The notes: generated from the sequence alone by a model not told the origin. A DNA stretch of 64,000 bases from Phycisphaeraceae bacterium (GCA_029260635.1 JAJDCW010000038.1:745-64744), one strand, 5' to 3'; counted from the stretch's first letter, positions 29,719 to 64,000 are shown. Made by a program: numbers and translations.

Positions 29719-31227
29719 CTACAGATAACTCATGGCGGTCAGGTCCGCCGATCCGGATTCCAGATTTACTATCATGTACCGCAGCGCATCGCAGAGGTGA
29801 TCCGGCCCGTCTTTGACGGGGTCTTCACGCCGCGGGTTATTTATATCAAAGTGGTACCGCCGCATGGCTTCGATGAGTCGGTTGCACCGGGGGTGTATGT
29901 ACAGTGTTTGCCGGTCAAGCCTTCGGCGGATGCGTTCGATCCCGTCTCGTAGCGTTGATCGTTTTGTTTGCACGGTGTGGCCCAGTTTGCGCAGGGCCTG
30001 GACGTCACTGATTCCCGTATGGCTGTTGCGCTGGTTGCCCGCGGGATCGACACCTAACCAGGCGGGATGTGGCCATCCGTACAGCGCGGCCTGCTGGCCA
30101 ATGGCAGCCACATGCTGGTCGAATGTGATACCCGCCCGCAGATACTCGTCCATGATATGGACGACTGTTTGGTTGCTATCGATATGGTTATTATAAACAC
30201 GGGCCCAGAGCATGACGGTGGGGTTGCGAAGGCCAAAGTCCATGCCGCCGATCCAGAATTGTTTGCTGCTTTCCAAGTCCTCCTCACGGACGTGGAGGGC
30301 CGGGTCGAACTGGGGATAAACACAATCGCTGACCTCAGGCTGTCGGCACATCATCTCGACGGACCACGCATGTCGACTGGTCCGTTTCCACTGCTGCACA
30401 AGGTCATCGACCGGGATAAATCCGATTGCGGATTTGGCTCGGCCCCGGCAATCGTCCCACAGGACGCACCCCTCGCAGGGGCGCTCATCCGGGCAGCGCT
30501 CGATGACATCCATCGCGGTCCACTTGAAAAGTCTTGACTCGCCGGGCGCGTCTGTTTGCAGGTCAGCGGTGATTCCCGCCATCAGGCCGAACGGCCGGTG
30601 CATGGTGGACAGGGCCTCTACGGCACCACGGACGTACTTGTCGCCGCACCGGCCGGATCGTGTGACCATCTGGGCGGCCTCCCAGACGCCGGGCTCGAAC
30701 TCCTCGACCTCGTCGCAGCGAAGCTTCTGCACGCGTACGCCCCGAACAGAGCGTTGTGACCCGGCGAGGAGTTGCACGTTGCTGCCGTTGGAAAGCGCGA
30801 CCCGCCGTTGTGTTGGTTCGCCGTCAAGCAGTCCACGGAACCAGGGCTTCTCAAACAGGGCGACCAGGTGCTCAAACATCTTCGATGACTGCTCAAGTGA
30901 GCCGCCTAGGATGCGGACCTGAATACCGGGTTTGAACACCAGGTCAAGGAGCGTGGCGGCCGCTCCGAGCATGGTCTTGCCCCCGCCCCGATTCGCCCAA
31001 ACGACCGCATCTTTGTTGATTGCGTTGTTGCCTGACGGGTCCGGTTCGAAAAATGTGTGTGTCAGGTAGTCGAAGGGGGCGCTGCTGCCGGGCACCAGAG
31101 GTATACGCGGCACGACCATGCCTAGTGCCGCCTGAGTAAAACGGTGCAGTTGCCTCGGGGTTTTTGGTTCTAGTTTGATTAGTTCATGGCAGTCATCGAT
31201 GCGGGGGGTCGATGATCGCTTATTCAT
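29719..31227 (-). CDS. phage terminase large subunit (TerL)
   Basis: Walker A WANRGGGKTMLGA and Walker B LRCDEVEEF. C-terminal RNaseH-like nuclease motifs IGGMDFGLRNPTV and GVDPAG. The ATG at 31227 lies inside the last codons of the upstream gene (GATGAATAA). Confidence 0.85.
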   Translation of the reverse strand: MNKRSSTPRIDDCHELIKLEPKTPRQLHRFTQAALGMVVPRIPLVPGSSAPFDYLTHTFFEPDPSGNNAINKDAVVWANRGGGKTMLGAAATLLDLVFKPGIQVRILGGSLEQSSKMFEHLVALFEKPWFRGLLDGEPTQRRVALSNGSNVQLLAGSQRSVRGVRVQKLRCDEVEEFEPGVWEAAQMVTRSGRCGDKYVRGAVEALSTMHRPFGLMAGITADLQTDAPGESRLFKWTAMDVIERCPDERPCEGCVLWDDCRGRAKSAIGFIPVDDLVQQWKRTSRHAWSVEMMCRQPEVSDCVYPQFDPALHVREEDLESSKQFWIGGMDFGLRNPTVMLWARVYNNHIDSNQTVVHIMDEYLRAGITFDQHVAAIGQQAALYGWPHPAWLGVDPAGNQRNSHTGISDVQALRKLGHTVQTKRSTLRDGIERIRRRLDRQTLYIHPRCNRLIEAMRRYHFDINNPRREDPVKDGPDHLCDALRYMIVNLESGSADLTAMSYL

Positions 31228-31696
31228 CAGATGTCTCGATGGATTCGATGACACGGGTGGGGTGATCTCCCTCGATTGAATCCTGATAGAGCAGATTGCG
31301 TAAGGAATCGATCCCGGATTCCGATACGATGTCTGAAGGAGCGATTGTAATCTCTGTGTCGATGTCTGCCCGCTTCATTTCAAGTTTCAAAAGATCGACA
31401 CAGGCCCGGCGGGCGTTTTCCAGCCCGGCCTTGCTGTCGTCGGGTTGGTTAGTGGCCAGCTCGATCAGCCGGCCGGCCGCGATCAGCCTGTACCGGCTAA
31501 GCAGCAGTTGAGTTTGCAGATCGGCCAGCACGCACAGGCCCGCAAGGCACCGGTGGTTGGTTTCATCTTGTATCCATTGTGACAGGCTGTCGGGTGACAG
31601 CGCGTACTTGCTGTGAAGAGCGGTCAGGTCGAAGTCTGCGTTGATCAGGTCTTTGATGAGTGCCGACCGGCGTTTGGCACTGATTTTTCTAGGCAT
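31220..31696 (-). CDS. terminase small-subunit-like protein (positional call)
   Basis: A 158-aa protein directly upstream of TerL and translationally coupled to it. It has a basic N-terminus (MPRKISAKRRSALIKDL) and an acidic tail. No diagnostic motif. Confidence 0.45.
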   Translation of the reverse strand: MPRKISAKRRSALIKDLINADFDLTALHSKYALSPDSLSQWIQDETNHRCLAGLCVLADLQTQLLLSRYRLIAAGRLIELATNQPDDSKAGLENARRACVDLLKLEMKRADIDTEITIAPSDIVSESGIDSLRNLLYQDSIEGDHPTRVIESIETSDE

Positions 31697-31723
31697 GGGT
31701 CCTCTGGGTTATTGAGTACGTTG

Positions 31724-32371
31724 TTAAGTTAAGGGCTGTGGCGCTGTGTCGGGCTCGCCGCTTGCGGGTTTTACCTGTTCGATGAGTTTCATCAGGGCCT
31801 GTTCACGCGGACCTTCGTATTGACGGAGGGCGAGGTCCAGCCGTGATTTTTCTTCGGGCTTGAGGAAAAAAAAGACCGCGACCGGCATCTGATCGAGGGG
31901 CCTGGGTGGACGTGGGGTGGGGGGATGATCCTTGAATTCCAGATACTTCTTGATCTGTTCGACACGTTCGGGCAATAGGCGGGTGAGTCGTTTGATTCCG
32001 TGCTGATCGGCAAGGCGACTGAGAAGCTTCGCGCGTTTACGAGGATCGTCCTGTCCCTGCAAGCGGTTGAGTGTTGCCAGAAGCAGCAGGGCTTCCTGGT
32101 CATCTGCCTGCCATACAACACACTCGGCAGAGTCTTTGCCCGCCTCTTTCAATGCCCGGGCTCGATGATGGCCATCGAGGATCTGGTAATAGTCATTGGC
32201 ACCTGGCGGGCAGTTGAAATCAGGGTCACGAAACGGGCGGACAATCAATGGAGGGTATCGCCCCGTACGTTGGATGTGGCTGGCCAATTTGTCTACCAAC
32301 GCCTCGGGCATCACGTTGCTGTTGTTCGGGTGCGCTCGCAGCTGGTTCAATGGAATTGTTTGTGTATTCAT
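31724..32371 (-). CDS. ParB N-terminal (ParB/sulfiredoxin-like nuclease) domain protein
   Basis: Sequence LRAHPNNSNVMPEALVDKLASHIQRTGRYPPLIVRP...YQILDGHHRARALKEAG. Confidence 0.75.
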   Translation of the reverse strand: MNTQTIPLNQLRAHPNNSNVMPEALVDKLASHIQRTGRYPPLIVRPFRDPDFNCPPGANDYYQILDGHHRARALKEAGKDSAECVVWQADDQEALLLLATLNRLQGQDDPRKRAKLLSRLADQHGIKRLTRLLPERVEQIKKYLEFKDHPPTPRPPRPLDQMPVAVFFFLKPEEKSRLDLALRQYEGPREQALMKLIEQVKPASGEPDTAPQPLT

Positions 32372-32380
32372 ATGTATGAT

Positions 32381-33175
32381 TTACGGAACAAGGGCCGAGT
32401 TGTCGTGTAGGTAGTACACAGGGTCCAGCATCAGACGCTCTCGGGCAGCTTGTAGATGAGTGGATGGGTCGGTGCTGTGAGCAATACTCCGGCCATCGTT
32501 CTGCCTGTACCAGCGGTAGAGTTCTTTGTAGAACCAATCTCGTGTGCTGGTACTAAGCGATTTGATTCTCTGGCTGAGTTGAGGCGTCAAAGCCAGGCTG
32601 ACCGTGTTTAGTCCAATGGATTGCATAGCTTGAATGAGTCTTGCGTCGCAGGCGTGTTGGGGCCGGGGGTAGGCGGTCATGCCGGCACGCTGGAAGAACG
32701 GGTTGACTCGGCCCATCGCCGCGAGGGCTTCGGTATAGCGCGTGGTGGGTGTTTGTAGCGCGGCCCTTACCAGGCGGACCGCTAAGCCGATGCCGCGCCA
32801 GCATGGGTGGACGACGACCCGGCTGATCACACGGACCTCTAGGTTTAAGAGCGTCGCCTGCTGTCGGGGTGTCAGCCAGTTGCCGTAACGGTCATTCAGG
32901 GCGTAGTTTCGCATGGTGCAAGACAAGCTGGGTAACGATTCCAGCAGTACCGCGACAGGTTGATCGCGTGCCGGAGTGCTGGTGAATCTATCCGTGGCTG
33001 TATGTGCGGACCGAACCAGAGTCAGGACCCGCGTGGCGGTCGCGGGGCGGTCGGCCCGGTAGTGATGTTCTTTTAAGCCCTTGTAGTCGGTTAAGGTGCC
33101 GATTCTTAGCCTGAGTTTGTCACCGGGGTCGGCCCGGGAGATCGATGTGAAACGCTGTTGTATATCCGATGTCAT
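32381..33175 (-). CDS. hypothetical protein with GNAT-acetyltransferase-like core motif
   Basis: ISRVVVHPCWRGIGLAVRLVRAAL matches the acetyl-CoA-binding R/Q-x-x-G-x-G/A motif context of GNAT. The rest is unrecognised. There is a 5-nt gap to the upstream ATPase gene. Confidence 0.45.
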   Translation of the reverse strand: MTSDIQQRFTSISRADPGDKLRLRIGTLTDYKGLKEHHYRADRPATATRVLTLVRSAHTATDRFTSTPARDQPVAVLLESLPSLSCTMRNYALNDRYGNWLTPRQQATLLNLEVRVISRVVVHPCWRGIGLAVRLVRAALQTPTTRYTEALAAMGRVNPFFQRAGMTAYPRPQHACDARLIQAMQSIGLNTVSLALTPQLSQRIKSLSTSTRDWFYKELYRWYRQNDGRSIAHSTDPSTHLQAARERLMLDPVYYLHDNSALVP

Positions 33176-33180
33176 CGTGA

Positions 33181-33849
33181 CTACTTCTCGATCAGGTCAA
33201 GCGACTCGCCCAGATGTTTTTCGATGAGTGTGTCGGGTGACAGGGCTTCCAGGAGGTCGTCGTGTGTGGTGGCGGCGACGAAGCAGGCCCCAGAGCGCGT
33301 GACCCATCTGCGGACATTGCGAGCGATGGCTTTGGCGGTGGTCCGGTCGAGTGTGGAGCAGAACTCGTCCGCAAGGATGATGCTCAATTGATCGGATCGG
33401 ACCTTGGCTTCGGTCATAGCCATGGCCTGAGCCAGGCGCAGCCGGTAGCGTTGGCCGTCGGATAGCTGCGAGGGTTTACGGAGCATGACGAAGGCGTCGT
33501 TCAGCCCCGCGAGGCTAAGAAGACGGAGTACATCACTGAGTGGTCGTTTAGGGAAGACGTCCACGAGGGGGCGGTCTTCGATCGCTGGCATCGAGTTGAA
33601 ATTGAGGGCGTGCGTAAGTTCCTCGTGCTTGAGTTGTTCGTGGATCAGTTGGAGCACCGTGGACTTGCCGCTGCCGCTGGCCCCCGTGACAAAGATTAGT
33701 CGGCTGGGGGACAGATTCAGGCTGGTTTCGGGGATCAACTGGATGGAGCGTTTCTGATCGATACCCAGGCCGAACATCGCGGCGACCTCCAGGACATGGG
33801 GGGTCGGATCAACGGCGGACGGGACGCTGTGATTGAGCGTGATCTGCAT
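33181..33849 (-). CDS. stand-alone ABC-type ATPase (single NBD, no TM domain)
   Basis: Walker A GASGSGKST, signature LSDGQRYR, Walker B ILADEF and H-loop TTHD. GGAGG sits 5 nt upstream of the ATG. Confidence 0.8.
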   Translation of the reverse strand: MQITLNHSVPSAVDPTPHVLEVAAMFGLGIDQKRSIQLIPETSLNLSPSRLIFVTGASGSGKSTVLQLIHEQLKHEELTHALNFNSMPAIEDRPLVDVFPKRPLSDVLRLLSLAGLNDAFVMLRKPSQLSDGQRYRLRLAQAMAMTEAKVRSDQLSIILADEFCSTLDRTTAKAIARNVRRWVTRSGACFVAATTHDDLLEALSPDTLIEKHLGESLDLIEK

Positions 33850-33956
33850 GAAACCTCCAGAATTTCAAAAATTATTCAACCTTATGTATTAAACGTATAT
33901 ATGTGCCATTCAGCGAAAGTGGCGAACGAATCGGATGCTAATTCAAGGATTTGTCC

Positions 33957-34373
33957 CTAGACAAACAGTCGAGCCGTAGCGCGAACCGTACTCATATGGT
34001 CCCTGACCTTGTGGAGAGACTGGCCGGATATTTCTGCTGTCTTGCGCATGCTTTGGCCGTTGAGGACGACCTGCTTGGCGGTGGCGCGGACCTCGGGCGG
34101 GAGCGTGTTCATTTGCAGGGCGACAAACTTGAAGTGCTTTTTTGACAAGCGTTTAATAATTGATTGGGCACGGCGCTGCAGGCACCGTGCGGGTAATTGA
34201 TACAGCCGAGCGAGCTGTGCCATGGGCAGATTCCCGTCAAGAACCTGCTCGATGAGCAACTTGTCATCTGAAGGCAGATATTCAGCCAGGGCTCGAAGTT
34301 CATCGATCTGACGACGCCTGTTGTGGCGAAGTGCGTGTGCCTGGTCGGAGAGATTGTTCAGGGCGTGCTGCAT
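33957..34373 (-). CDS. small DNA-binding protein with two tandem sigma70-region-4/LuxR-like HTH modules
   Basis: The two modules are LPSDDKLLIEQVLDGNLPMAQLARLYQLPARCLQRRAQSIIKRL and LPPEVRATAKQVVLNGQSMRKTAEISGQSLHKVRDHMSTVRA. It is the first gene of the minus-strand phage operon. Confidence 0.6.
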   Translation of the reverse strand: MQHALNNLSDQAHALRHNRRRQIDELRALAEYLPSDDKLLIEQVLDGNLPMAQLARLYQLPARCLQRRAQSIIKRLSKKHFKFVALQMNTLPPEVRATAKQVVLNGQSMRKTAEISGQSLHKVRDHMSTVRATARLFV

Positions 34374-34428
34374 GGGGCTTGCAAATATTGTTTGTATGGT
34401 ATATGTTAGGTATTAGACCGGGGACCTG

Positions 34429-34445
34429 ACCCCTTGTCAAGGGGT
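34429..34445. promoter_or_regulatory. perfect palindrome ACCCCTT-GTC-AAGGGGT in the divergent promoter region (candidate operator)
   Basis: 7+7 bp inverted repeat 30 nt upstream of the repressor ATG and 56 nt upstream of the dual-HTH gene. It is flanked by AT-rich -10-like sequence. Confidence 0.4.
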
Positions 34446-34474
34446 TGTTCAGAGTTTTTTTAACACTGGGATAA

Positions 34475-35317
34475 ATGCTTCAGATGCAGACCGTAGGTGA
34501 GATGATCCGAGTGCTTCGCCTTGAGCGTGGCATGACACTGGCGGCTGTCGCTGAATCGATTGGTTCGACCAAGAGCTATCTGTCGATGATCGAGAACCAC
34601 CGTGTCGCCAAGCCGCCTTCGGTTAAGTTTTTGAAGCTGCTTGAACAGGTGCTTGGGGTGACTGACGGTCGGCTTCACCGTGCGGGCGACCTGGAGCGAT
34701 CGCCGCAGACGGTCAGAGAGCAGGTTCAGCAGTTGACATGTAATGCGGCGCGTGGGCGTGAGCTCGCGTCGTTTCTTACCACGTCCGCACGGAACGGCAG
34801 GGGGGGTGGAAAAAATCTCGATGAACTCTACCGCAGCGGGGAATTGCGCCGTCGGATCGAGCTTACGCTTGAGTCGGCCGCGACAGAAGATGCCAGCGAG
34901 GGTCTTCACCAGATCGATCTTTACCGTGTCCCACTGGTTAACAAGGTGGCGGCGGGATACCCCACGGGGTTTACCGATCTGGATTACCCCGCGCGGGTCG
35001 CGGACGATTATCTGAGCAGCCCGGGGTTGGATGACCTCGATGCCTTTGCGGCGACCGTGATCGGGGCGTCGATGGAGCCGGACTACCGGGAGGGAGACAT
35101 CGTGGTCTTTTCTCCGGCGGCGGATGTGACTGACGGGTGTGATTGTTTCGTCAGGCTTGAGCCGGACCATGAGACAACCTTTAAACGTGTGTTTTTTGAC
35201 GCGGATGGGTCGTTGGTCCGTCTTCAGCCGTTGAATCCAAAGTTTCCACCTTCCGTCCACGAGCGGCAGCTTGTCGCGGGTTTGTATCGAGCCGTCTTCC
35301 GTTATTCCCGGCTGTAA
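34475..35317 (+). CDS. CI/LexA-like repressor: XRE-family HTH + S24 self-cleaving peptidase domain
   Basis: N-terminus IRVLRLERGMTLAAVAESIGSTKSYLSMIENHR. C-terminus GASMEPDYREGDIVVF...TTFKRVFF, giving the Ser/Lys dyad context. Confidence 0.85.
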   Translation: MLQMQTVGEMIRVLRLERGMTLAAVAESIGSTKSYLSMIENHRVAKPPSVKFLKLLEQVLGVTDGRLHRAGDLERSPQTVREQVQQLTCNAARGRELASFLTTSARNGRGGGKNLDELYRSGELRRRIELTLESAATEDASEGLHQIDLYRVPLVNKVAAGYPTGFTDLDYPARVADDYLSSPGLDDLDAFAATVIGASMEPDYREGDIVVFSPAADVTDGCDCFVRLEPDHETTFKRVFFDADGSLVRLQPLNPKFPPSVHERQLVAGLYRAVFRYSRL

Positions 35318-35666
35318 CAGGCGCGTGTATCCGGGTGTGTCTTTACGCATGTCAGGTGATTGGTGTCGGCTGTTAGTGTCGTGAAACTCGCGTCTACTTA
35401 TGGCGGATCTGCCGCCCGTGTGCGCACTTTTATGGGTAAAGAAGTGTTCAGATACAATTAACCAGGTGACTCCACGGGTTTTAGCGATTCTTTGGGGATG
35501 CACTTTTTCATTACGGATATGAACGGTGTGTGCGCACCGACCCGACCATTTCGGGTCGGGCAGTATGTCCAATAATCAACCCGGACACAGATCAATACCG
35601 GGTCTGGCTGAATCAGGCAGCGTCATTTTACGATGATAGGGTTGAAACCCTATCCACGGAGCCTGA

Positions 35667-36128
35667 ATGATTATGCACGAACTGTCCTCGATGAAACGTA
35701 ACGGTGGTTTTACACTTGTCGAACTCATCATTGTGGTAACCATATTGGGGATATTGGCGGCGCTAGTTATTCCTAAGTTTACGGATGCGAGTGTGCGCGC
35801 CCAGACCGCGGCGACTCAGGACCAGCTCCGCTCCGTGCGGACGGTGTTGGAACGCTACAAGCTGGATCACAACGACAGTTACCCCGACATCGGAGACCTT
35901 TGGGGCGTGGTGACCGCTAAGACCGATGCCGACGGGACTCTGAATGCCGCGGGCGACTACGGGCCTTACATGAAGTCTTCACCGGAAAACCCTTTCACAA
36001 ATAGCGTTACCGTCGTCGCTTTTGGGGCGGGTACCGCGACCGACGGCTGGGAGTACGATGTGACGGAGACGCCGGTTATCAACGCCGTGGGATTTAATGA
36101 GGTGGCGGGTACTTACACCGCCCCGTGA
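35667..36128 (+). CDS. type II secretion GspG-like pseudopilin (prepilin-type N-terminal cleavage/methylation domain)
   Basis: Sequence GGFTLVELIIVVTILGILAALVIPKF. The real start may be MKRNGGFTL at 35691. Confidence 0.8.
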   Translation: MIMHELSSMKRNGGFTLVELIIVVTILGILAALVIPKFTDASVRAQTAATQDQLRSVRTVLERYKLDHNDSYPDIGDLWGVVTAKTDADGTLNAAGDYGPYMKSSPENPFTNSVTVVAFGAGTATDGWEYDVTETPVINAVGFNEVAGTYTAP

Positions 36129-36160: not shown

Positions 36161-37369
36161 TCATCGCAGTTTGATCGTCGCCAGCGCGATCGCGGTCAGC
36201 AGTGCGCTGATCAGCCAGAACCGCACGACGACCTGCTGCTCGGTCCAGCCCGAGAGATGGAAGTGGTGGTGGATGGGGGCACACTTGAAGATGCGCTTAC
36301 CGCCGGTGGCCTTGAAGTAGCCGACCTGCAGCAGGACGCTGAGCACCTCCATCAGGAAGACGCCGCCGATGACCATGAGCAGGAACTCCTGGCGGATAAC
36401 GACGGCGATATATCCCAACAGGCCCCCAAGCGGCAGCGAGCCCGAGTCTCCCATGAAGACCTGCGCGGGGGAGCAGTTAAACCACAGGAAGCCGAGGCAG
36501 GCCCCGACCATGGCCCCCGCGACGATGGCAAGCTCGTCGCTGAACGGGATGTGCGGGACGAGCAGTTTCTTGGCGAGCACGAAGTCGCCGTCGGTGTAGC
36601 CCGCGATGATGCAGAGCACGACGAAGGCAAACGCGACGATCACCATGTTCCCCGCAGCGAGCCCGTCCATACCGTCGGTGAGGTTTACGGCATTGGACGA
36701 GTACGTGATAATAAAAATCGTCAGGAGGACGAACTGCCATGTGCCCAGGACGATCAGATAGGGGGACGGGACGTATGCCCCGTCCTGAAAGACCCAGGTT
36801 TTCAGTAGTGGAAGTGTCAGGCTGTGGCTCATGACCTGTTCATTGGGGTCGGGGAACAGGACGCTGTTGTTGCCCCAGTGATGGATAAACAGGCCAAGGA
36901 TCACCGCGAGCCCAAGTTGGAGCAGGAGTTTTTCACCGGAATAGAAGCCGTGGCGCGAGCCGGGCTTGCGGCGAGCGGTGGTGAGCTTCAGCCAGTCATC
37001 GACGAAGCCGACCAGGAATAGATAGATCAGGCAGACCAGGGCCATGATGACGTAGAAGCTGTCCAGGTCCGCAAGCAGGACGGTCGAGACAAAGATCGCA
37101 AAGGCGATCAGGATCCCGCCCATCGTTGGGGTGTTTTTCTTCTGCTTCATCAACTGGTCGAGTTCTTTGTGATCGAAGCTTGGGTTGTCGCCGATTTTCT
37201 GTTTGACCAGCCACCGTATCGTGCGCTTGGCGAAGAGGACGACAATCAGGAAGCTCAAAACGATCGAGAGGATGGCCCGGAACTCGACCCAGCGGAAGAC
37301 GCCCAGCGGACCCAGCACGGGGCTGTTGTCAATAGTTTCCTGGAGGTATTGAACGAGCAGGTAGATCAT
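36161..37369 (-). CDS. mraY: phospho-N-acetylmuramoyl-pentapeptide transferase
   Basis: Motifs NAVNLTDGMDGLA, VFMGDSGSLPLGG and APIHHHF. Ten-TM layout. Confidence 0.95.
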   Translation of the reverse strand: MIYLLVQYLQETIDNSPVLGPLGVFRWVEFRAILSIVLSFLIVVLFAKRTIRWLVKQKIGDNPSFDHKELDQLMKQKKNTPTMGGILIAFAIFVSTVLLADLDSFYVIMALVCLIYLFLVGFVDDWLKLTTARRKPGSRHGFYSGEKLLLQLGLAVILGLFIHHWGNNSVLFPDPNEQVMSHSLTLPLLKTWVFQDGAYVPSPYLIVLGTWQFVLLTIFIITYSSNAVNLTDGMDGLAAGNMVIVAFAFVVLCIIAGYTDGDFVLAKKLLVPHIPFSDELAIVAGAMVGACLGFLWFNCSPAQVFMGDSGSLPLGGLLGYIAVVIRQEFLLMVIGGVFLMEVLSVLLQVGYFKATGGKRIFKCAPIHHHFHLSGWTEQQVVVRFWLISALLTAIALATIKLR

Positions 37370-37430
37370 GGCGGGGCAGTTTGATCTTTATAGGTGTCTG
37401 TTGCAAGTAAATCGGTGGCGGGTTCGGTTG

Positions 37431-54132: not shown

Positions 54133-54406
54133 TGATCGCTAATTAAATCATCACTTACGGACGGATGCAAGCCTTATGTGCCGAAATGGTGCGCACAAAA
54201 CCAAACAAAAACCATACAAATATTAACGATTCGCCCTTTTCGCTTTGCTTTTGACATTACTGGGCTTACTCACTTTTTGTTACCCCATGGTCAGTCTTTG
54301 TGCGCTGACTTCTGACGTTTCGGCCAAAGGTGTAGGGCCTGTGTGTAGGCAACGGCTGATGGCTCTAACGCGAAACAACACGTCAACTGGTAGCGAGTGA
54401 TTTCAG

Positions 54407-55948: not shown

Positions 55949-56476
55949 ATGACGGACAGTGTAATGAATGAGACAACTCATCAGGCAGACACAATCGGAG
56001 AAGATTTGGTTGATCCGGCGACAAGCCCGGACAAGCTGGTGCCTGTGAGCGAGGCGATCCGTTATCGCAAGCGAGCTCAGGCCGCCGAGCAACAGCTCGA
56101 AGCGCTCCACGGAGAATTAGATACAGCTCGGACAAGGTTGTCCGAAGCGGATCAAACCATCGTGGGGTTGGAACGTCAGCAGAAAGTCGATGCGTTATTG
56201 ACCGAAGCCGATGTGATCGATCTGGAGACCGCCCGCCTGCTTACCGAACAGGCGGTGTCCACGATGGACGAGGCGGACGTCGAACTGGCCGTTAAAGACC
56301 TAAGACGCCACAAGCCATACCTGTTCCGACGCAGGCAGAGCCGGGCCGCTTCCGCGATGGCGCCCAACATCGACTCACTTGACCACAACCCGACCGAACA
56401 AGCTGCCGAGAAGGCGACTTTGTCGGGGGATCGTCGTGACCTGCTTCGCTATCTACGTCTGCGCCGCCAGCAATAG
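55949..56476 (+). CDS. phage scaffolding-like coiled-coil protein
   Basis: AIRYRKRAQAAEQQLEALHGELDTARTRLSEADQTIVGLERQQKVDALL lies between the portal and capsid genes. AGGAAG sits upstream of the ATG at 55949. Confidence 0.5.
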   Translation: MTDSVMNETTHQADTIGEDLVDPATSPDKLVPVSEAIRYRKRAQAAEQQLEALHGELDTARTRLSEADQTIVGLERQQKVDALLTEADVIDLETARLLTEQAVSTMDEADVELAVKDLRRHKPYLFRRRQSRAASAMAPNIDSLDHNPTEQAAEKATLSGDRRDLLRYLRLRRQQ

Positions 56477-56546: not shown

Positions 56547-57716
56547 ATGCCATTTACAGGAAAAGCCACTTACACCGCAGGGGCCAGTCTCCCGGAACTA
56601 GTCGAAGACGTCTCCGACATCATCAGCATCGTAAGCCCCTTCGAGACGCCTTTGCTGGACCACCTCGGCGATCCGCAACGCACCGCAACCAGCACGGTTC
56701 ACGAGTGGTTGGAGGACTCGCTGCTACCCAATACGGATACCATCCAGGACCCCGTGATCTCATCCCCTCTGACCGAAACAACTTTTACCGTTGGTAACGG
56801 GGGCCGTTTCCGTGTTGGCGATCAGATACAGGTCACCGGCTCCAGAGAGGTCATGTTTGTTACCGGTGTCTCCAGCAACGATTTGACCGTGATACGCGGG
56901 TACGGTGGAACGACATCGGAGGGCCTGGTGGATGACGCGACGATCCGTATTCTGGGCAACGCAGCACTTGAGGGGGATGATGCGCCGGCGTCACGGTTCA
57001 CCAGCCGGGTCCGCAAGACTAACTACACGCAGATCTTCACTTCGACGGTGGAGGTGTCGGGCTCTCAACTTGCCTCCAAACAGATCGGATTGTCTGACGA
57101 GTTGGATTATCAGAAGCAGGAGCGTCTGCGTGAACTGATCCGAGACCTTGAAAATTGCGTAATCAACGGTGTCGCCGCGATGTCGAACCCCGAGGGCAAT
57201 GCATCGATACGTCGGACCATGCAGGGGATCATCCCGTTCATACAGACGAATGTATATGAAAGTGGGGCCGGGGGCTTCCCCTCGGGCTCCGGAGCGGGTT
57301 CCGATGAGCTGACGGAAGAACAGATCAATGCCGCGCTGAGGCGGGTATGGGACGAATCGTCCGGTTCGATCGACACGATCCTGGTTGGTGGGCTCCAGAA
57401 GCGGCGGATCAACAGCTTTATTACTGGCAGTCGGGGTTATAGCGAGAGTTCGACACGATTCCGCGATCTGGTCAGCACATATGAATCCGATTTCGGCGTC
57501 TGCCGGGTAGTTCTCTCTCGCTGGGTCCCTCAAGACACCGTTCTGCTTTTGGATTCTTCTCGGATCGATGTGCTGCCCCTGGCCGGCCGAAGTTTCGGAT
57601 TCAAAAAACTGGCCTCGACCGGCGACAGCGAGACCGGGCAGGTGATCGGCGAGTACTCGCTGGAGCTGCGTAACGAGCTGGGGCACGGGCTGATCCGTGG
57701 CCTCGCGACGAACTGA
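56547..57716 (+). CDS. phage major capsid protein (DUF5309/SU10-type, HK97-fold family)
   Basis: The N-terminus TAGASLPELVEDVSDIISIVSPFETPLLDHLG resembles the conserved start of this capsid family. The 389-aa size and the position after the scaffold also fit. Confidence 0.65.
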   Translation: MPFTGKATYTAGASLPELVEDVSDIISIVSPFETPLLDHLGDPQRTATSTVHEWLEDSLLPNTDTIQDPVISSPLTETTFTVGNGGRFRVGDQIQVTGSREVMFVTGVSSNDLTVIRGYGGTTSEGLVDDATIRILGNAALEGDDAPASRFTSRVRKTNYTQIFTSTVEVSGSQLASKQIGLSDELDYQKQERLRELIRDLENCVINGVAAMSNPEGNASIRRTMQGIIPFIQTNVYESGAGGFPSGSGAGSDELTEEQINAALRRVWDESSGSIDTILVGGLQKRRINSFITGSRGYSESSTRFRDLVSTYESDFGVCRVVLSRWVPQDTVLLLDSSRIDVLPLAGRSFGFKKLASTGDSETGQVIGEYSLELRNELGHGLIRGLATN

Positions 57717-57757
57717 TACGCCGGGCCTTGATAGAGGATTCTCTACACGGCTATAGG

Positions 57758-57781
57758 GCCGGGGGTTTAATCGCCCCCGGC
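57758..57781 (+). other. GC-rich stem-loop GCCGGGGG-N8-CCCCCGGC directly after the capsid gene
   Basis: Perfect 8-bp stem at 57758-65/57774-81. No U tract follows. Confidence 0.4.
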
Positions 57782-57821
57782 ACCTATTGAAGATCATGCC
57801 ACTTACGACGGGGATACAGCG

Positions 57822-58460
57822 ATGAATTTTTCAACAGACCGGGACCTGCTTGCGATCGAGCCCGCGGTATTTGAAGACGTACCGTTTGCGGCCCAGCGCA
57901 GAGTGAGTGTAGTGGACGGGGTCGTCAGTGGGACAACGCTAACCAGTAATAGCGCGGATTTTGTATCCGCTCAGGTCGATGCGGGGGCGGTTCTTCTGAT
58001 CAGTGGTATCGCACACGAGGTTCTGACGCGTGTAGATGCCAACACACTTACGGTTTCCCTGCCGCGACCGCACAAGACCGACGCGGGCATCCCCGGCGGC
58101 GATGGCTCATCGTTGGAAGTCACCGTTCAGACCTTCTCTCCACAGGCGGAGCTGATCCATGACGGGCTGCTGAGGCTGCTGGGCATCGATCCGGATGACC
58201 CCGATTCGGTATTAGATGAGTCAGCGATCATCTCGCAGTCATTGATGGCTCGGCTGGAAGCGTTGGGAACACTTGAGGTTGTTTACTCCGGTGCGGCTTC
58301 CTTGATCGGTGACAACGACACCCTCCTGATGAAGGCGGGGGAGTATCGCAGGCGGTTCCGCCAGGCCTGTGCGGGAGCGCGTGTGTCGCTGGATACCGAT
58401 GGGGATGGTGTGGTGGATGAGCGATTGTCACTCGGGACGATCCGATTTTCTCGCGCCTAA
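57822..58460 (+). CDS. phage structural-module hypothetical protein
   Basis: Co-oriented, follows the capsid gene and has protein-like composition. Confidence 0.5.
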   Translation: MNFSTDRDLLAIEPAVFEDVPFAAQRRVSVVDGVVSGTTLTSNSADFVSAQVDAGAVLLISGIAHEVLTRVDANTLTVSLPRPHKTDAGIPGGDGSSLEVTVQTFSPQAELIHDGLLRLLGIDPDDPDSVLDESAIISQSLMARLEALGTLEVVYSGAASLIGDNDTLLMKAGEYRRRFRQACAGARVSLDTDGDGVVDERLSLGTIRFSRA

Positions 58461-58479
58461 GCGTATTGGCAGTGTACCA

Positions 58480-58860
58480 ATGGGGCATGACATGGTGACT
58501 TTTGATGACCAAACTTTATTTGGGCCGGGGCCTGCGCGGTTCAAGATCGGGCCAATCAAACTTCGGCACGCGATTCAGCACCCGCTCGGTTCGCGTGGGG
58601 TACGTATCGAACATCAAGGCACCGAGGCGAGGGAGTTCAGGCAGACTGGTGTTCTTATAGATGATACACCCGAGAGATTACAGGTGATAATTGACGCGAT
58701 CGAATCATACATTGATGGCTTGCCACACACACTGGTGGATAGCGTTGGCCGTACTTGGAATGACACGGTCATGCTGGAGGCGGAGGCTGACCCATTTGTG
58801 CGGGCCGGGGCGCGTTGGAAGGCTTCTTACCGAATCACATACCTGCAGGTCATCGTATGA
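58480..58860 (+). CDS. phage structural-module hypothetical protein
   Basis: The start was trimmed to MGHDMVTFDD to remove overlap with the upstream gene. The stop overlaps the next start (ATGA). Confidence 0.45.
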   Translation: MGHDMVTFDDQTLFGPGPARFKIGPIKLRHAIQHPLGSRGVRIEHQGTEAREFRQTGVLIDDTPERLQVIIDAIESYIDGLPHTLVDSVGRTWNDTVMLEAEADPFVRAGARWKASYRITYLQVIV

Positions 58861-59579
58861 GCAGTTTTGTCACGATCGATGCGACACAGGACATCTTCGA
58901 GCTGGTCCTGGCCCGACCGGTGATAACAGCCACCGGCGAACATCCGTGGTTGGTTCACCTCTGGTGGCGGGCACCCCTTCAGGGGGACCGGGTTGTGCAG
59001 ATTTACGTTCAGGATGAGTTGTATGACGTGTCACTTGATTCCTGGGCAAGAGCAATGTTTCTGGTGCTTGACCGCACACGAACCAACCGTATGGAGTTAC
59101 TGGCGGTGCCGGCGGGTGACCCCGAGGCGATCTGGCGTGCACAACCCGACCTGCTTAGGTCGTGGCAGCCGCGCGTGTCGGATGTGGCGGCGGTCTCTCT
59201 TATCCGCGACGAGACGCTGTCGGTTGATACACGGGTCGATGTTGAAGTGGATGGCGTTGTTATCGATTCGGGTTTGATGTGGTCTAATCAAGTGCATCGT
59301 TCAGATCCAGATGGAAACTTGGAGGCGGGCGATGTGGCCGGGCTGGGCCTGGGTATCGGCAATCTCGGTGCCGGCCGGCTGGGTTATGACGCGGCATCAT
59401 TGTGTTGGCGTCGAGACGATCTTCGGCAGGGCACATACGACATCGTAATCGGCGCGGTGGATTCGAGCGGCCACCCCGCGGCCGACCCATTGCTGCTTGA
59501 TGATGTTTTGATCGATGGTTTGCCTGGCCAAGTTGTAGGCCTGTCGATTGATCGGGCGTTCCAGATTTCCTGGGACTAA
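58857..59579 (+). CDS. phage structural-module hypothetical protein
   Basis: Start MSSFVTIDATQ forms an ATGA overlap with the upstream stop. Confidence 0.5.
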   Translation: MSSFVTIDATQDIFELVLARPVITATGEHPWLVHLWWRAPLQGDRVVQIYVQDELYDVSLDSWARAMFLVLDRTRTNRMELLAVPAGDPEAIWRAQPDLLRSWQPRVSDVAAVSLIRDETLSVDTRVDVEVDGVVIDSGLMWSNQVHRSDPDGNLEAGDVAGLGLGIGNLGAGRLGYDAASLCWRRDDLRQGTYDIVIGAVDSSGHPAADPLLLDDVLIDGLPGQVVGLSIDRAFQISWD

Positions 59580-59651
59580 TGATATTCAACGTCGTTTGAC
59601 TCAGACCCGGGAGTGTTATCCCGTGTGTCATGATGATCAGAGGAAAATATA

Positions 59652-60104
59652 ATGCCTATCCAGGAACTTACCCCCGATCAGATTGATAGTCTGGTCGGCA
59701 CGCGCCACCCCGAGACGGGCATCGAGTACCCGCCGAACGGTCTGCAACCTTACTACCACTGGTTGATCCGTGCGTTGCACCTGTTGGCGGAATCATCACT
59801 CGGGGCGTTACGGGTCGCGGAAGTCGACTCGTCAGACACAGCGATACAGATCGCACCCGGTCGGGTAAGCATCTCGGGGGTAGTGTTGGATTTTGCCGGC
59901 CAGGTCAGCGAGTTGGCTGCCTTTAACAACGACACCGCCTACATTTCGATATTCAATAATGCGGGGTCGCCTGGGATTTCTATTAGTGCCGACGCCAGCG
60001 GTTGGCCCGTTGGGTCACACATCAAGTTGGCGGAAGTTACGATCACGGCGGGGGTGATCAGCAACATCCTGGATCGTCGTATGGAAACCGTATTCAGTAT
60101 TTAG
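59652..60104 (+). CDS. phage structural-module hypothetical protein
   Basis: A 150-aa ORF with GAGGAAAA upstream of the ATG. Confidence 0.5.
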   Translation: MPIQELTPDQIDSLVGTRHPETGIEYPPNGLQPYYHWLIRALHLLAESSLGALRVAEVDSSDTAIQIAPGRVSISGVVLDFAGQVSELAAFNNDTAYISIFNNAGSPGISISADASGWPVGSHIKLAEVTITAGVISNILDRRMETVFSI

Positions 60105-60136
60105 CACTTCACGGTTTACCTGTTGGGTGGTTTACG

Positions 60137-62353
60137 ATGCAAATACACAAACACATTGATTTTCAGGTGCCCGGGTGGGGCGAGTACTCACAGGGACCGA
60201 CCACAGGGTCCAGCGCTCTGCTGACCCAATCCGATTCCGCCTCATTCCCGGACCGGCCGAGCCGGGACGGCATAGGTTTAGACGTGGCGATGTCGGTTGG
60301 CGATGAAGGCTCATATCTCACACACGATTTGGGCGCTGAGCAGTCGGCCCTACATGTCCGGCTGCTGCTGAATCCCCAGGGGGTCAGTGGGGGTTCGATT
60401 ACGTTGCTCGCGGGGTTGGATGGGGCGGACGTGGAGTCGATGCGTGTTTCGCTGGATGCAGACAGCGGCGACCTATTCGTCTGGTTCGCTGGCGGTACGA
60501 CGTTGTCTGCGTCGTTTGGCACCGGGATATTATGGCATTGCGTGGAGGTGGCGGTTGATACCGTGGCCGACCAGGCTGATCTATGGATCAACGGTGTGCC
60601 GGCCGATCAGGTGAATGCAGGCCTGTCGGCCGCAACGATTCAGACCATCCGGCTTGGTGCCGTCCACAAAGACACCAACGTGACCGGCAGCCTATATCTG
60701 GACGAAGTCGTCTTTGCGGACAGCTATATCGGACCGGTGATTGTCGCGCCGGGCGAATCACATGCGGGGGACCCCGCCCATTGGCTGGTTGTCTACAACT
60801 CCGCAGACCCGGACGCGGGAGCCTGGGCGGAAGCATATCGATTAGCCCGAAGCATCCCCTATGCAAACCTGTTGGGTCTTGCGTTGCCAACTGCTGAAAT
60901 CATCAGCACGTCGCAATACGCCGATCTTGTGACCAGGGTTGACGCTTACCTCTCTTTAAATCAGCTCGACGGCCAGATCATGGGTGTGCTGCTTGGTTAC
61001 CGTGTGCCGGGGTACATCGACTCGATCGGCGGGGGGATTTACGAGTCGGTGCCCGCGCAGATGCAGACTGCCAGCACGACACTCGGTCCCGCGTTAAATA
61101 CCCTGGCATCACCGGCCAGCTATGAGAGGCTCACGACTCCAGACCTCGCCGGCAAGCGGATGACCGCCAGGATCGACGGGCCTGATTTGGCCACCGCTAT
61201 TCAACTCATCGATCGGGCGACCGCGATTTGTGAAACACGTCTTAGCGCAGACGACGCATTGTTTTACTTCGATCCATTTGTTGGCGATGGCGCTGTCTAT
61301 CAGTCGGCATTCAATGACATGATCGACTGGATCACCGGTAACGGGGGGATGCAAACCCGGTTAAACATCGTCCTCAGCGGTGATCCAGGCGGCAATGAAG
61401 ATGCGGGATTCGAGACGGTATCGGGTGACGGGTTGTTCTGGGGCTGGTCACTAACGCTTCCTGATGCCGACATATTCACTGCGCCTGCGGGTCGACGCGC
61501 GCTCTGCGGGCAGGTGTATCTAGACGGAGCGTCGGCTACCACCCTGCGCAGTATGTCACCAGGCAATTGGGCGGACATACCTCTGGCGGCGGGCTATGCG
61601 GCTGTCGTCGCATCCTCGAGAAACAGCCCGGTGTTCTGGATACCCGATGCCGGCGCATTGTTTGATACGCTTACGCTTGGGTGGACACTCACGGAGGCGT
61701 GGTTTGTCGCGCAGCCGGTGATACGGGGCGGCTTCTATCTCGTCGGCGACCCCTTGATGACCATCGGGATGCCACGAACGGGTACCGAAGTCTTTGGCCC
61801 TCTCGAGAGCTTAAAAGACCTGGACACGGATTCGCCGGCATTCATACTGCCGGAAAGCGTTCGTGAACTCGATCTATTCAGCGCCGCCCCCGCCGAAGAT
61901 CAGGAGGCGGTCTACGTTGTTCGACATACGGACGAGATGGGACGCGCCGAATCATCTCCGACCTCCATTCGGATCACTCACGTCGACGGCCAATCTCTCA
62001 TGCCCCCGGCCATGCCGGTGTGGCCCGATGCTGCGGGTTGGATGGCTGATGTAGAAGAGGGACAGATTCGGCTTCTGACATGTTGGGCCGGACCGATTGC
62101 GGGGATGCGTGTCGGGTCCGTTGAGTTAATGGGTCAGCTCGAGGGCGGGGCGGAGGTCGTTACAGCGCAGGCGGCAATCAACCCACGGGATGATTACGTC
62201 TTGGTAATTGAACCCCTCCCCCCGGTACGCACAAGATACCGTTGGCGTGTGACATCGCCTGATGGCGTTGTAGAGTACACGGACTGGTCCGAGTACATCG
62301 ACCCAGCTTCGGAGCCCGCGTCTTCACTTCAGCAGATCGGAGCCAGCTATTGA
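60137..62353 (+). CDS. large phage tail/receptor-binding candidate: N-terminal LamG/ConA-like lectin fold + TIGR03790-like segment
   Basis: LWHCVEVAVDTVADQADLWINGV...LYLDEVVFADSYIGP is a LamG-like pattern. WLVVYNSADPDAGAWAEAYRLARSIPYANLLGLALP resembles the TIGR03790 family start. The ATG at 60137 is preferred over the 60002 extension. Confidence 0.55.
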   Translation: MQIHKHIDFQVPGWGEYSQGPTTGSSALLTQSDSASFPDRPSRDGIGLDVAMSVGDEGSYLTHDLGAEQSALHVRLLLNPQGVSGGSITLLAGLDGADVESMRVSLDADSGDLFVWFAGGTTLSASFGTGILWHCVEVAVDTVADQADLWINGVPADQVNAGLSAATIQTIRLGAVHKDTNVTGSLYLDEVVFADSYIGPVIVAPGESHAGDPAHWLVVYNSADPDAGAWAEAYRLARSIPYANLLGLALPTAEIISTSQYADLVTRVDAYLSLNQLDGQIMGVLLGYRVPGYIDSIGGGIYESVPAQMQTASTTLGPALNTLASPASYERLTTPDLAGKRMTARIDGPDLATAIQLIDRATAICETRLSADDALFYFDPFVGDGAVYQSAFNDMIDWITGNGGMQTRLNIVLSGDPGGNEDAGFETVSGDGLFWGWSLTLPDADIFTAPAGRRALCGQVYLDGASATTLRSMSPGNWADIPLAAGYAAVVASSRNSPVFWIPDAGALFDTLTLGWTLTEAWFVAQPVIRGGFYLVGDPLMTIGMPRTGTEVFGPLESLKDLDTDSPAFILPESVRELDLFSAAPAEDQEAVYVVRHTDEMGRAESSPTSIRITHVDGQSLMPPAMPVWPDAAGWMADVEEGQIRLLTCWAGPIAGMRVGSVELMGQLEGGAEVVTAQAAINPRDDYVLVIEPLPPVRTRYRWRVTSPDGVVEYTDWSEYIDPASEPASSLQQIGASY

Positions 62354-62403
62354 AAGCCTGTGCATCCCTTGGTCCTGTCCCGCGCGCCAATGTAATAGAT
62401 GGC

Positions 62404-64000
62404 GTGCAGCCATTCGTACTGATTAATGACACACCCGAGCCCCGGCTGTCGGTTGAATCATTCAAGGTGCGCGGCCCACTGGACCTGCGAACCGCAAGAA
62501 TCATGATGGATGAGCCGGTTGGTCCAGCCGGGGTGCCACAGGTGTGGTTGAACGCTCTGGTGGCAATCGCCTGGCCCGTCAGGCTCAATGATGATGAGAC
62601 CGCCTGGCCGGTCCTGATGCGCGGAGAGCTTAAGCAGGTCCAAGCGACAGATTCGAGTGCCCAGCACGACCGATGGTATGAACTCTCAGACTTGTGGGGA
62701 CAGGCCATATCACAGCCCTTGAATTCTATCCCACAACTCAACCCGGCCGGTTCGCTGATCACGCAACCGTATGGGGCGCTGATGATCGGCCGAGAAGGGA
62801 ATCGCTCGGCGGATCGATTCACGGTGAACGGCGAGCAGGTCCACGTCATCCAGCAGGAGTCGGGTTTGATGTGGACGGTTCAATCGGCACTTGAATACTT
62901 ATCCGCGTCAGGCAGCCTCGATCTCCTGCTGACCGGTCTCCCCAGAGAGATTGCTCACGCCGATCTGGATGACACGATCGATCTGACTAAACCCCTAGAC
63001 GGGTTGCTTGAAAACATGCTGACCGAGTGCGGGTTGGTCATCCAACGCGACATCGCACGTCAAGGCGGTTCTATCAGCGAGACCCGGGCGGTACGTCCTA
63101 CCGGGTCCGGGCGACCGATACGGGTCGTTTGGGCCAACGGTTTGCGGCCTCTGGGTGATGCCTTAAAGATATCGGTTGATAGGCCCGCACAACCCGCACA
63201 ACTCTGGACCGCCCGGGCAGGCGGTTGGGTTGTCGAGTCAACATTCGAGTTGGTCGGCGGTTGGGCCCCGGCTCTGGAAGGTCAGGCAGACGATGAATAC
63301 GACGAGAGCTTAAGCAGTGACTTTGCGACCTACGCCGATGTATACCGCAACTGGGTCCTCAATGAAGACGGGTTCTATACGCAGCCGCTATTTAATCGTG
63401 GCCCCGCGTATGACTTGGCTTTGTTGTTTGGCGAACCCGGCATCGACCCTCAACCGATTGCATTACAACCAAACTTGACACTCGACGATAAAGGTTCTCC
63501 CCTTGACCCGATTGTTCAGATGAGCACGGACAGCGGGTCGAACTGGTCCGTCTTTCCCAAGTCCAGCACGATCCTGAAGGACCGAGCAGGGGTTTATCTT
63601 GACTCACAATCTCTACCGACGACATTTCTAGCCGCCGCCAAGGCCGGCAGCGCGCGCCTGCGTGCGACCGCCAGCCTACGGAGCCCGCTACCCGTCGAAC
63701 AATCCCGGTGGAAAGGCAACGCCTTTACTTCGATCCTGCCGCCGCGGGTAGTCGACCTCGCGGAAACCCATCTATTTCATCGTGTCGATCAGAACAGTAT
63801 CCATTACGACAACATACATGCGGGGGCGCTGGTTGCGGATGAGGTGGATGACAGTCATCGGTTACTCGGTTCGCTTGTTAAACAGATGGATCACGGTTCG
63901 GAGGGCGGGCGAGCCACACTTGATCTGTCGGGTGCCTGGCCGCTGCTGCGAGTTGGTGATTGTTTGCGAGAGATACGTGGACCAGGTGTTGCGGCGGACG
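62404..64000 (+). CDS. phage structural protein (tail/baseplate candidate), partial, runs off the right edge
   Basis: Own translation. The frame is open from the previous stop to position 64000 (...LINDTPEPRLSVESFKVRG...DCLREIRGPGVAAD). It is not in the ORF track because it has no stop. The start is uncertain (GTG 62404, ATG 62503 or TTG 62350). Confidence 0.55.
   Translation, partial: MQPFVLINDTPEPRLSVESFKVRGPLDLRTARIMMDEPVGPAGVPQVWLNALVAIAWPVRLNDDETAWPVLMRGELKQVQATDSSAQHDRWYELSDLWGQAISQPLNSIPQLNPAGSLITQPYGALMIGREGNRSADRFTVNGEQVHVIQQESGLMWTVQSALEYLSASGSLDLLLTGLPREIAHADLDDTIDLTKPLDGLLENMLTECGLVIQRDIARQGGSISETRAVRPTGSGRPIRVVWANGLRPLGDALKISVDRPAQPAQLWTARAGGWVVESTFELVGGWAPALEGQADDEYDESLSSDFATYADVYRNWVLNEDGFYTQPLFNRGPAYDLALLFGEPGIDPQPIALQPNLTLDDKGSPLDPIVQMSTDSGSNWSVFPKSSTILKDRAGVYLDSQSLPTTFLAAAKAGSARLRATASLRSPLPVEQSRWKGNAFTSILPPRVVDLAETHLFHRVDQNSIHYDNIHAGALVADEVDDSHRLLGSLVKQMDHGSEGGRATLDLSGAWPLLRVGDCLREIRGPGVAAD

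Follow-up and report, generated by a model that had tools for sequence, protein, structure and literature searches.

The question raised by this locus is what kind of element carries its packaging and head genes in two separate places. In a 64,000-nt stretch of DNA from a Phycisphaeraceae bacterium (the window, taken at its full length), the genes of a phage-like element lie within positions 29719-64000 in two blocks, module A and module B: the cut falls between the genes for the large terminase (TerL) and the portal, and ~19 kb of host core genes lie between the blocks. The original prediction had called the genes of both modules and the host segment between them, and open reading frame (ORF) maps and profile searches agreed with these calls. 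The two blocks are probably (probability of about 0.7) the halves of one phage-derived particle system that was domesticated long ago and has since been passed on vertically in the Phycisphaerales. Judged from sequence features, a domesticated particle system maintained by selection is very probable; a gene transfer agent (GTA) specifically would be a tentative assignment, at slightly under even odds. In the proposed scheme, module A would provide control and DNA packaging, and module B would build the particle. The genes that define the two blocks, with the neighbour of the portal, were as follows:

Module A, 29719-35317:
34475-35317, + strand: S24 repressor with HTH_3 and Peptidase_S24 domains, of the cI/LexA-like self-cleaving type (Pfam, PHROG)
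34374-34474, no strand: regulatory region from which the repressor and the HTH138 operon diverge (sequence, palindrome scan)
33957-34373, - strand: 138-residue, sigma70-region-4-like helix-turn-helix (HTH) protein, HTH138, which opens the packaging operon (NCBIfam, match to sigma70-ECF C-terminal, E 1e-3)
33181-33849, - strand: ABC-type ATPase (Pfam, PHROG_293, PDB profile)
32381-33175, - strand: GNAT-like 264-residue protein, PHROG_886 (PHROG; weak GNAT matches in PDB)
31724-32371, - strand: ParB_N (nuclease/CTPase-like) domain protein (profile search)
31220-31696, - strand: 158-residue helical protein with an HTH-like N-terminus, in the position of the small terminase, TerS (alignment; position)
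29719-31254, - strand: TerL, ATPase plus RNaseH-like nuclease (Pfam Terminase_6C, PHROG TerL families)

Module B, head genes:
54407-55882, + strand: SPP1-type portal, first gene of the head operon (profile search)
55949-56476, + strand: scaffolding protein (weak profile match, canonical position)
56547-57716, + strand: SU10-type (HK97-fold) major capsid protein, MCP (Pfam E 5e-89; PHROG_1328)
57822-58460, + strand: 212-residue conserved, head-associated protein (conserved in the long and short locus versions defined below)

Neighbour of module B:
52513-54132, - strand: NifA-like GAF-sigma54 enhancer-binding protein (EBP), divergent neighbour of the portal (NCBIfam, synteny)

Distribution and age of the TerL/portal break

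More than 3,400 matches came from the portal search and more than 1,900 from that with TerL; the best 120 matches of each were 48-85% identical, and every match that carried a taxon name was from Phycisphaerae or Planctomycetota. Portal and TerL matches were often located on contigs of equal length. When one genome per GTDB species was surveyed, a portal relative was encoded in 322 species representatives, and the neighbourhoods were read for the best 80 of these (all Phycisphaerae-type), with the flanks viewed over +/-10 kb. TerL was immediately upstream of the portal in 0 of the 80 loci. In ~45 of them the EBP stood to the left of the portal, in divergent orientation; at loci that lacked it, the left neighbours were other host genes, namely an M17 aminopeptidase, a class II aminoacyl-tRNA synthetase, ABC/MacB transporters or a TIR-pentapeptide gene. 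The last case is locus L015 (7539-8735), where a defence-like gene with TIR and pentapeptide-repeat domains stands directly upstream of the portal and the EBP neighbour is absent.

In a complete 3.9-Mb metagenome-assembled genome of ~70% protein identity, the arrangement of the window was found gene for gene, with TerL and portal 24 kb apart: murE-murF-mraY-pilin-repressor / HTH-ABC-GNAT-ParB-TerS-TerL / FHA...MqnA around module A, and opp-lgt-rnr-...-DUF2062-EBP / portal-scaffold-MCP around module B. The distance and relative orientation of the two genes in the window and in three further sequences were:

Window: TerL-portal 23 kb, divergent
Poriferisphaera sp. WC338, finished isolate: TerL-portal 39 kb, divergent
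CBDCYN010000023: TerL-portal 60 kb, tandem
CBDCBB010000010: TerL-portal 68 kb, convergent

The reading as an ordinary prophage rearranged by one strain-specific inversion, considered in the original prediction, fails because the split is fixed across genera, in divergent, tandem and convergent orientation, at the five spacings given above. The TerL/portal break predates the divergence of these genera, and the later rearrangements came after it.

The geometry of the proposal was right for the window, where one inversion does restore a colinear element, and the colinear order exists elsewhere. In the distant metagenomic locus L135, p264-TerL is followed after a ~470 bp gap by the portal, all on one strand; on the distant contigs L097, L093 and L038, TerL and portal lie on the same strand with a gap of 5-9 kb. 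In Rhizobium phage RHph_Y2_11 the order is ParB, ParB, ABC, ..., PHROG_886 protein, ..., TerL, portal, ..., MCP. Homologues in true phages were recognised for the ABC ATPase (41% identity, RHph_Y2_11), the GNAT-like protein (28%) and the ParB_N protein (27%). The order in RHph_Y2_11 is the one to be expected of the ancestor. Joined end to end, modules A and B therefore recreate the packaging and head module of a true phage, and the split may reasonably be traced to an ancient inversion.

As the original prediction had reported, no inverted repeats were found at the junctions (29.68-29.72 kb and 54.13-54.41 kb). In the Logan contigs of run SRR15505512, the EBP/portal junction (contig L001) and the junction of TerS-TerL with the host FHA gene (contig L217) were assembled separately, which argues against misassembly, though the reads are possibly the same.

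Inheritance, selection and shared control

Co-divergence with the host was assessed against RNase R distances in 17 genomes: the Mantel correlation with rnr was r=0.85 for the portal and r=0.79 for the MCP (p<=5e-4), and the capsid was the slower protein (mean p-distance 0.27 for the MCP vs 0.34 for RNase R). No stop codons were found within the portal, MCP and TerL matches across loci; the original prediction had allowed for inactivating mutations in relatives. The ratio of nonsynonymous to synonymous substitution rates (dN/dS) is quoted at unsaturated dS, for module B from L008/L010, the one pair in which dS was not saturated, and for module A from the pair L096/L097. In the first pair, dN/dS was 0.061 for the portal, 0.028 for the MCP, 0.20 for the 212-residue protein and 0.23 for the 738-residue protein described below, and the host genes gave 0.022 (rnr) and 0.094 (lgt), with dS of the same order as in module B. 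In the second pair, the values were 0.16 (TerL), 0.07 (ABC ATPase), 0.095 (GNAT-like protein), 0.057 (repressor) and 0.10 (TerS candidate); the ParB_N gene, at 0.38, stood above the other genes of the packaging block (0.06-0.16). The original prediction had asked whether capsid, portal and TerL are under purifying selection, and these values indicate that they are.

Neither an integrase nor a replication gene was seen among the annotated ORFs across the window, as had been predicted, nor in the flanks of relatives within +/-10 kb. Related portal and MCP genes together were found on 1 of 2.9 M IMG/VR contigs; this contig also carries hsdM and radical-SAM genes and looks chromosomal. A further 47 IMG/VR relatives of TerL had the ATPase domain alone in common with the element and no other element gene, and cultured phages were at most ~29% identical (tblastn of portal and TerL against the phage collection).

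For module A, the synteny set consisted of at least 40 metagenomic loci from the TerL metagenome scan, of which 40 are counted here. The unit repressor / HTH-ABC-GNAT-(ParB-TerS)-TerL was maintained down to ~40% TerL identity, and over the same range the S24 repressor, divergent from the packaging operon, was retained with module A.

Short palindromes were located near both modules, none with a strand:

34429-34445: 17-bp perfect palindrome ACCCCTTGTCAAGGGGT in the repressor/HTH138 region (palindrome scan)
35419-35428 and 35529-35538: pair of GTGCGCAC palindromes, 110 bp apart, past the stop codon of the repressor and ahead of the pseudopilin gene
54188-54197 and 54297-54308: operator-like palindromes upstream of the portal, GGTGCGCACA and the degenerate TTTGTGCGCTGA, ~110 bp apart

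The conserved palindrome is GTGCGCAC, with the extended form TTGTGCGCACAA. In relatives it is paired at approximately -200 and -85 from the portal start, with a pair spacing of 100-114 bp, and over the 320 bp that precede the portal, matches of this type reach a density of 2.07/kb, vs 0.09/kb overall. The pair upstream of the portal is present also where the EBP is absent. In the window there are three such matches (at 54188, 35419 and 35529), all intergenic and adjoining the modules; as 2.56 were expected, the count is that of chance and the matches are notable by placement only. Near the repressor, the type TTGTG-NN-CACAA (here GTGCGCAC) occurs at a fixed position, +190 to +225 from the repressor start, in 9 of the 40 module-A loci; its density there was 0.63/kb vs 0.016/kb (40-fold), and upstream of the portal it was 0.70/kb. 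The presence of the TTGTG-NN-CACAA type at both modules argues for one regulator acting on both loci, and the S24 repressor is the best candidate for the protein that would bind it. A lineage-wide operator within the repressor/HTH138 region was considered and rejected: the palindromes there vary by lineage, and the TTGTG-NN-CACAA type alone recurs.

The original prediction had placed the structural operon under the sigma-54 EBP, and this part of it was dropped. Across 45 EBP/portal intergenic regions, no sigma-54 element TGG[CT]-N8-[TG]GC was found in the portal orientation at a conserved position; in the window, no good -24/-12 match was present near 54.1-54.4 kb; and loci that lack the EBP keep the palindromes. 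Because a -24/-12 promoter was not found, the EBP may stand beside the portal by plain synteny, and its membership in the system is doubtful.

The palindrome pair at 35419-35538, with its portal-like spacing of 110 bp, lies upstream of a gene for a pseudopilin of the type IV pilus/type II secretion kind (35667-36128). Co-regulation of the pseudopilin with the element was not adopted: outside the window and its closest relative, no pilin gene was seen beside the repressor.

Gene content of the modules and host surroundings

The genes of module B that follow the 212-residue gene form a variable, 'tail-like' sub-module and the end of the operon within the window:

58480-58860, + strand: 126-residue conserved ORF, opens the sub-module (gene calls on L001, synteny)
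58857-59579, + strand: 240-residue conserved ORF of the sub-module (gene calls on L001, synteny)
59652-60104, + strand: 150-residue protein (weak match to a phage long tail fibre, PDB 8kec)
60137-62353, + strand: 738-residue protein (NCBIfam, AlphaFold2, Foldseek)
62350-64000, + strand: conserved protein of ~591 residues, at least 550 N-terminal residues in the window, running off the window end (relatives)

Genes beyond window position 64000 were inferred from relatives, in which the gene for the ~591-residue protein closes the series of large genes in long loci. Locus version, long or short, was scored in 51 determinable loci. In 36 of these, fibre-like genes lie between the 212-residue gene and a terminal trio of small genes (long version); in the other 15, Poriferisphaera included, the trio follows the 212-residue gene directly (short version). 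The short loci (L053, L026, L029, L034, L044, L071 and others) have intact portal, capsid and 212-residue genes. The trio encodes proteins of 90 residues (N-terminal transmembrane segment plus coiled coil), 160 residues (with the lipobox LNGC) and 96 residues. It was found at L002 20424-21418 and at equivalent positions in ~34 loci, even where the left flank varies, and its place is past the window end, after the structural genes. From these features, the trio may be an envelope-disruption or spanin/holin-like release module.

The AlphaFold2 model of the 738-residue protein (predicted local distance difference test score, pLDDT, 90) has an N-terminal ConA/LamG jelly roll, a central TIGR03790-like alpha/beta domain and C-terminal beta-sandwiches. 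In Foldseek, the jelly roll was similar to carbohydrate-binding domains of toxins and sialidases and to LamG proteins of phage virions, and the modelled fold makes the protein a candidate receptor-binding or fibre protein. A candidate fibre/receptor-binding sub-module is part of module B in ~70% of lineages. The N-terminus of the 738-residue protein (MQIHKHIDFQVPGWGE) matches that of a separate 251-residue LamG protein (L002 15736-16491), which in relatives stands ahead of a 712-residue homologue of the 738-residue protein; the match suggests that a deletion joined the two genes in the window lineage. Neither the 212-residue nor the 738-residue protein gave a significant match in PDB profile searches, and a single-sequence AlphaFold2 model of the 212-residue protein (pLDDT 35) was not used. 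A generic scan of module B for sigma-70 promoters and terminators gave results at chance level.

In module A, the ABC ATPase bears Walker A, LSGGQ-like signature, Walker B and H-loop motifs. The GNAT-like protein has an RGxGxA-type motif, invariably adjoins the ABC ATPase and persists into the most distant loci. The 138-residue HTH protein, whose homologues give a faint Pfam Sigma70_r4 signal, is a candidate activator or DNA-binding factor. The TerS candidate had no family match in Pfam or PDB profile searches; its matches to TALE-repeat structures in PDB were judged spurious, as no single stretch passed. Gene callers place the TerL start at 31227 (502 residues), which is likely the true start. 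The TerL gene closes module A, facing a host FHA gene in convergent orientation. In seven IMG/VR contigs (L173, L174, L183, L190, L194, L207 and L208), the TerL ATPase domain is ~40% identical to residues 32-322 of the protein here, and the homologue of the nuclease domain is encoded separately, upstream, as a split or permuted large terminase. The idea that module A is a defence island was rejected, as PADLOC gave no specific defence-system match.

Two genes from TerL, at 28305-29027, lies a gene for a secreted (signal-peptide) N-acetylmuramoyl-L-alanine amidase of the Amidase_2/peptidoglycan recognition protein type, endolysin-like by PHROG. It is probably outside the element, since an unrelated 490-residue protein occupies the same position in the 70%-identity relative L003.

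The host genes between the modules (35.6-54.1 kb) are the pseudopilin, mraY, murF, murE, FKBP, oppA/B, lgt, rnr, HEAT and DUF2062 genes and the EBP. The rest of the window is host DNA with polysaccharide, lipid and two-component genes, parB and mraZ, and no tRNA was found in the window outside the element. The G+C content of the modules (0.56-0.59) is near that of the adjoining host genes (0.57-0.62), as expected of a domesticated element. The division and cell wall (dcw) genes are dispersed (22581-23066, 24526-25644, 36161-40465): mraZ lies 13 kb from murE-murF-mraY, with the chromosomal parB and module A intervening, and the pseudopilin gene follows mraY in place of murD. At 3229-12469, a + strand polysaccharide cluster (sugar transferase, family 4 glycosyltransferases, Wzy-like protein, flippase, family 2 glycosyltransferase) has an unusually strong GC skew of 0.15-0.2.

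Explanations weighed and known systems compared

The sequence of events that we propose is as follows. An ancestral temperate phage would have lost its mobility genes; a rearrangement, possibly one inversion, would have cut it at the TerL/portal junction before the genera radiated; and the split system would have been retained for a benefit to the host. One DNA-binding regulator, with the S24 repressor as best candidate, would co-ordinate both loci, and if the regulator is this repressor, production would be tied to RecA/SOS-type cleavage. Upon derepression, a subpopulation would make capsids, TerL would load DNA and the particles would be released, an action like that of a GTA. Of the hallmarks of GTAs, those found here are chromosomal phage capsid, portal and terminase genes, clade-wide vertical descent, purifying selection, more than one locus, and annotated ORFs free of mobility and replication genes in the window and the flanks surveyed; the fixed position and host core flanks are not those of a functional temperate prophage. 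The part of the original prediction that concerned domestication stood, on presence throughout the order, synteny, co-divergence, selection, the lack of mobility genes and the near-absence of relatives from viral databases, and its GTA part remains a proposal from sequence. The fuller version, an order-wide and independent SU10-capsid GTA, the first in Planctomycetota, with two loci, a shared operator, an SOS-type repressor and some tailless lineages, is put forward tentatively, with the odds leaning somewhat against it.

Several points weigh against the reading as a domesticated, GTA-like particle system. No tube, sheath, tape-measure or baseplate protein was recognisable in module B by profile searches, 15 of the 51 loci have no fibre or tail-like genes, and no homologue of the 738-residue protein was found in two complete 'short' genomes; the 'short' lineages may make tailless particles, a poor fit to a classical GTA. 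In the window, the divergent promoter of the repressor itself lacks the shared palindrome, and there are only candidates for the protein that would bind it. The 158-residue protein is a putative TerS from its position only. The selection estimates rest on few close pairs, as dS was saturated for most. GTA activity is proposed here from the genes, and the literature searches noted below covered open-access and bioRxiv texts.

These points were set against three other explanations. A recent, ordinary prophage, split by a strain-specific inversion or an invertible segment between 29.7 and 54.3 kb, would account for the colinear regulator...TerS-TerL-portal-capsid order that one inversion at both points restores in the window and that exists in real phages. 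It is hardly tenable: the identical split and flanks occur in genomes 50-80% identical at the protein level, a finished isolate included; the tandem and convergent genomes (60-68 kb) are not restorable by one inversion; dS of the phage-like genes equals that of the flanking host genes; and neither inverted repeats at the junctions nor integrase or replication genes among the annotated ORFs were seen. If the blocks were instead inert remnants of one or two old prophages, persisting by chance in slow decay, the missing mobility, replication and recognisable tail genes and the loss of the tail-like sub-module from ~30% of loci would be expected. Yet full-length, stop-free portal, MCP and TerL genes are kept in essentially all loci across an order-level radiation, dN/dS (0.03-0.2) is comparable to that of housekeeping neighbours, the capsid evolves more slowly than RNase R, and the regulatory palindromes are conserved, which makes decay very improbable.

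A domesticated and functional element that is not a GTA is unlikely but deserves more credit: a PBSX-like killer or defective particle, a tail borrower in the manner of the capsid-forming phage-inducible chromosomal islands (cf-PICIs), a DNA-release device or some other use of the capsid. Short loci without fibre or tail genes retain portal, MCP and TerL; defective phages induced by the SOS response, PBSX among them, typically have S24 control; and the lectin-like receptor-binding domain predicted in the 738-residue protein is compatible with killing as well as delivery. However, satellites of the cf-PICI type are mobile, with integrase and replication genes, whereas here none were seen and the locus is fixed and vertically inherited, and tailocin-type killers are without capsid, portal and terminase, all three of which are conserved here. 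A PBSX-like killer and a GTA are indistinguishable by sequence, and PBSX itself packages host DNA.

If the preferred reading, a domesticated particle system with GTA-like action, is true, it would constitute a new GTA origin, make horizontal gene transfer tractable in a phylum for which genetic tools are scarce, and explain why 'prophage' calls keep recurring at one position in these genomes. The arrangement in two loci that share an operator, and likewise the tail-less variants, would be a natural experiment on the rewiring of a domesticated virus. That real phages also have the ABC-GNAT-ParB cassette beside TerL hints at an unstudied accessory role in packaging. With isolates in culture (Poriferisphaera, Phycisphaera), the hypothesis is open to direct test. 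To our knowledge, few independent GTA origins are known, and none is in the PVC (Planctomycetota-Verrucomicrobiota-Chlamydiota) lineages. In full-text searches of the open-access and bioRxiv literature, no GTA or conserved phage-like cluster was described for Planctomycetota or Phycisphaerae, as the original prediction had supposed.

Poriferisphaera heterotrophicis ZRK32 releases hexagonal 'chronic phage' particles when supplied with nitrate or ammonium (PMC10945688); the same study assigned the particles to an extrachromosomal 21.9-kb 'Phage-ZRK32' with Pseudomonas-like auxiliary metabolic genes, absent from the host chromosome. 'Phage-ZRK32' (OP650935) was considered as a relative of the element and set aside, as it was not among the portal and TerL tblastn matches in the phage collection. 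Poriferisphaera genomes carry the element's conserved capsid locus beside a NifA-like regulator, and it is a speculation that the particles of P. heterotrophicis are products of this locus and not of 'Phage-ZRK32'.

Among known systems, the PBSX/PBSZ elements of Bacillus are chromosomally fixed defective phages, conserved in their clade, with terminase, portal and capsid genes and a repressor with SOS-type control. The element is alike in being fixed and in having terminase, portal, capsid and a linked repressor. PBSX, however, occupies a single uninterrupted stretch of ~28 kb, is myovirus-like with evident tail genes and is restricted to a small group of hosts, whereas the element is split, has no sheath or tube and occurs in hundreds of species. 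The cf-PICIs have TerS/TerL, portal, capsid and head-completion genes of their own but none for a tail, and in gene content they resemble the short locus version; they are mobile (integrase, replication genes, att sites) and patchy, in contrast to the element, which has no linked mobility genes and is fixed and vertical. Rhizobium phages of the RHEph10/RHph_Y2_11 type and SSU5-like Klebsiella phage-plasmids carry an ABC ATPase/PHROG_886 cassette like that of the element. In RHph_Y2_11, the only one of these phages from which the context was taken, the ParB_N-ABC-PHROG_886 cassette is directly upstream of TerL-portal-scaffold-MCP. Unlike the element, the RHph_Y2_11 and SSU5-like entities are autonomous phages or phage-plasmids of 110-117 kb with replication genes, and the TerL, portal and MCP of the cassette-bearing phages have no detectable similarity to those of the element.

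A further comparison is with the GTAs of the Rhodobacter capsulatus type (RcGTA) in Alphaproteobacteria (R. capsulatus, Caulobacter), whose properties are well established (Lang et al. 2017, cited in bioRxiv 10.1101/2022.02.18.481119). RcGTA is like the element in having head and packaging genes of phage origin but no integrase or replication genes, syntenic conservation at the level of an order, purifying selection and co-divergence with the host, and in having its genes distributed over more than one locus, ~16-17 kb in total. The two are set apart by their family assignments: the element's proteins fall to SU10_MCP, SPP1_portal and Terminase_6C, which differ from the families of the RcGTA head-tail cluster (HK97-type g5 capsid, g3 portal, g2 TerL). 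TerS-TerL-portal-capsid is contiguous in RcGTA, whereas the element is cut exactly between TerL and portal, and control in RcGTA is of the CtrA/GafA type, whereas the element has the ABC/GNAT/ParB cassette and the linked S24 repressor. Also unlike RcGTA, the element has no recognisable siphovirus tail genes, and its tail-like module is missing in ~30% of lineages. Besides its protein families, the element is distinctive in its break between TerL and portal, in its cassette of ABC, GNAT and ParB genes, in the S24 repressor linked to it and in having tail-less variants.

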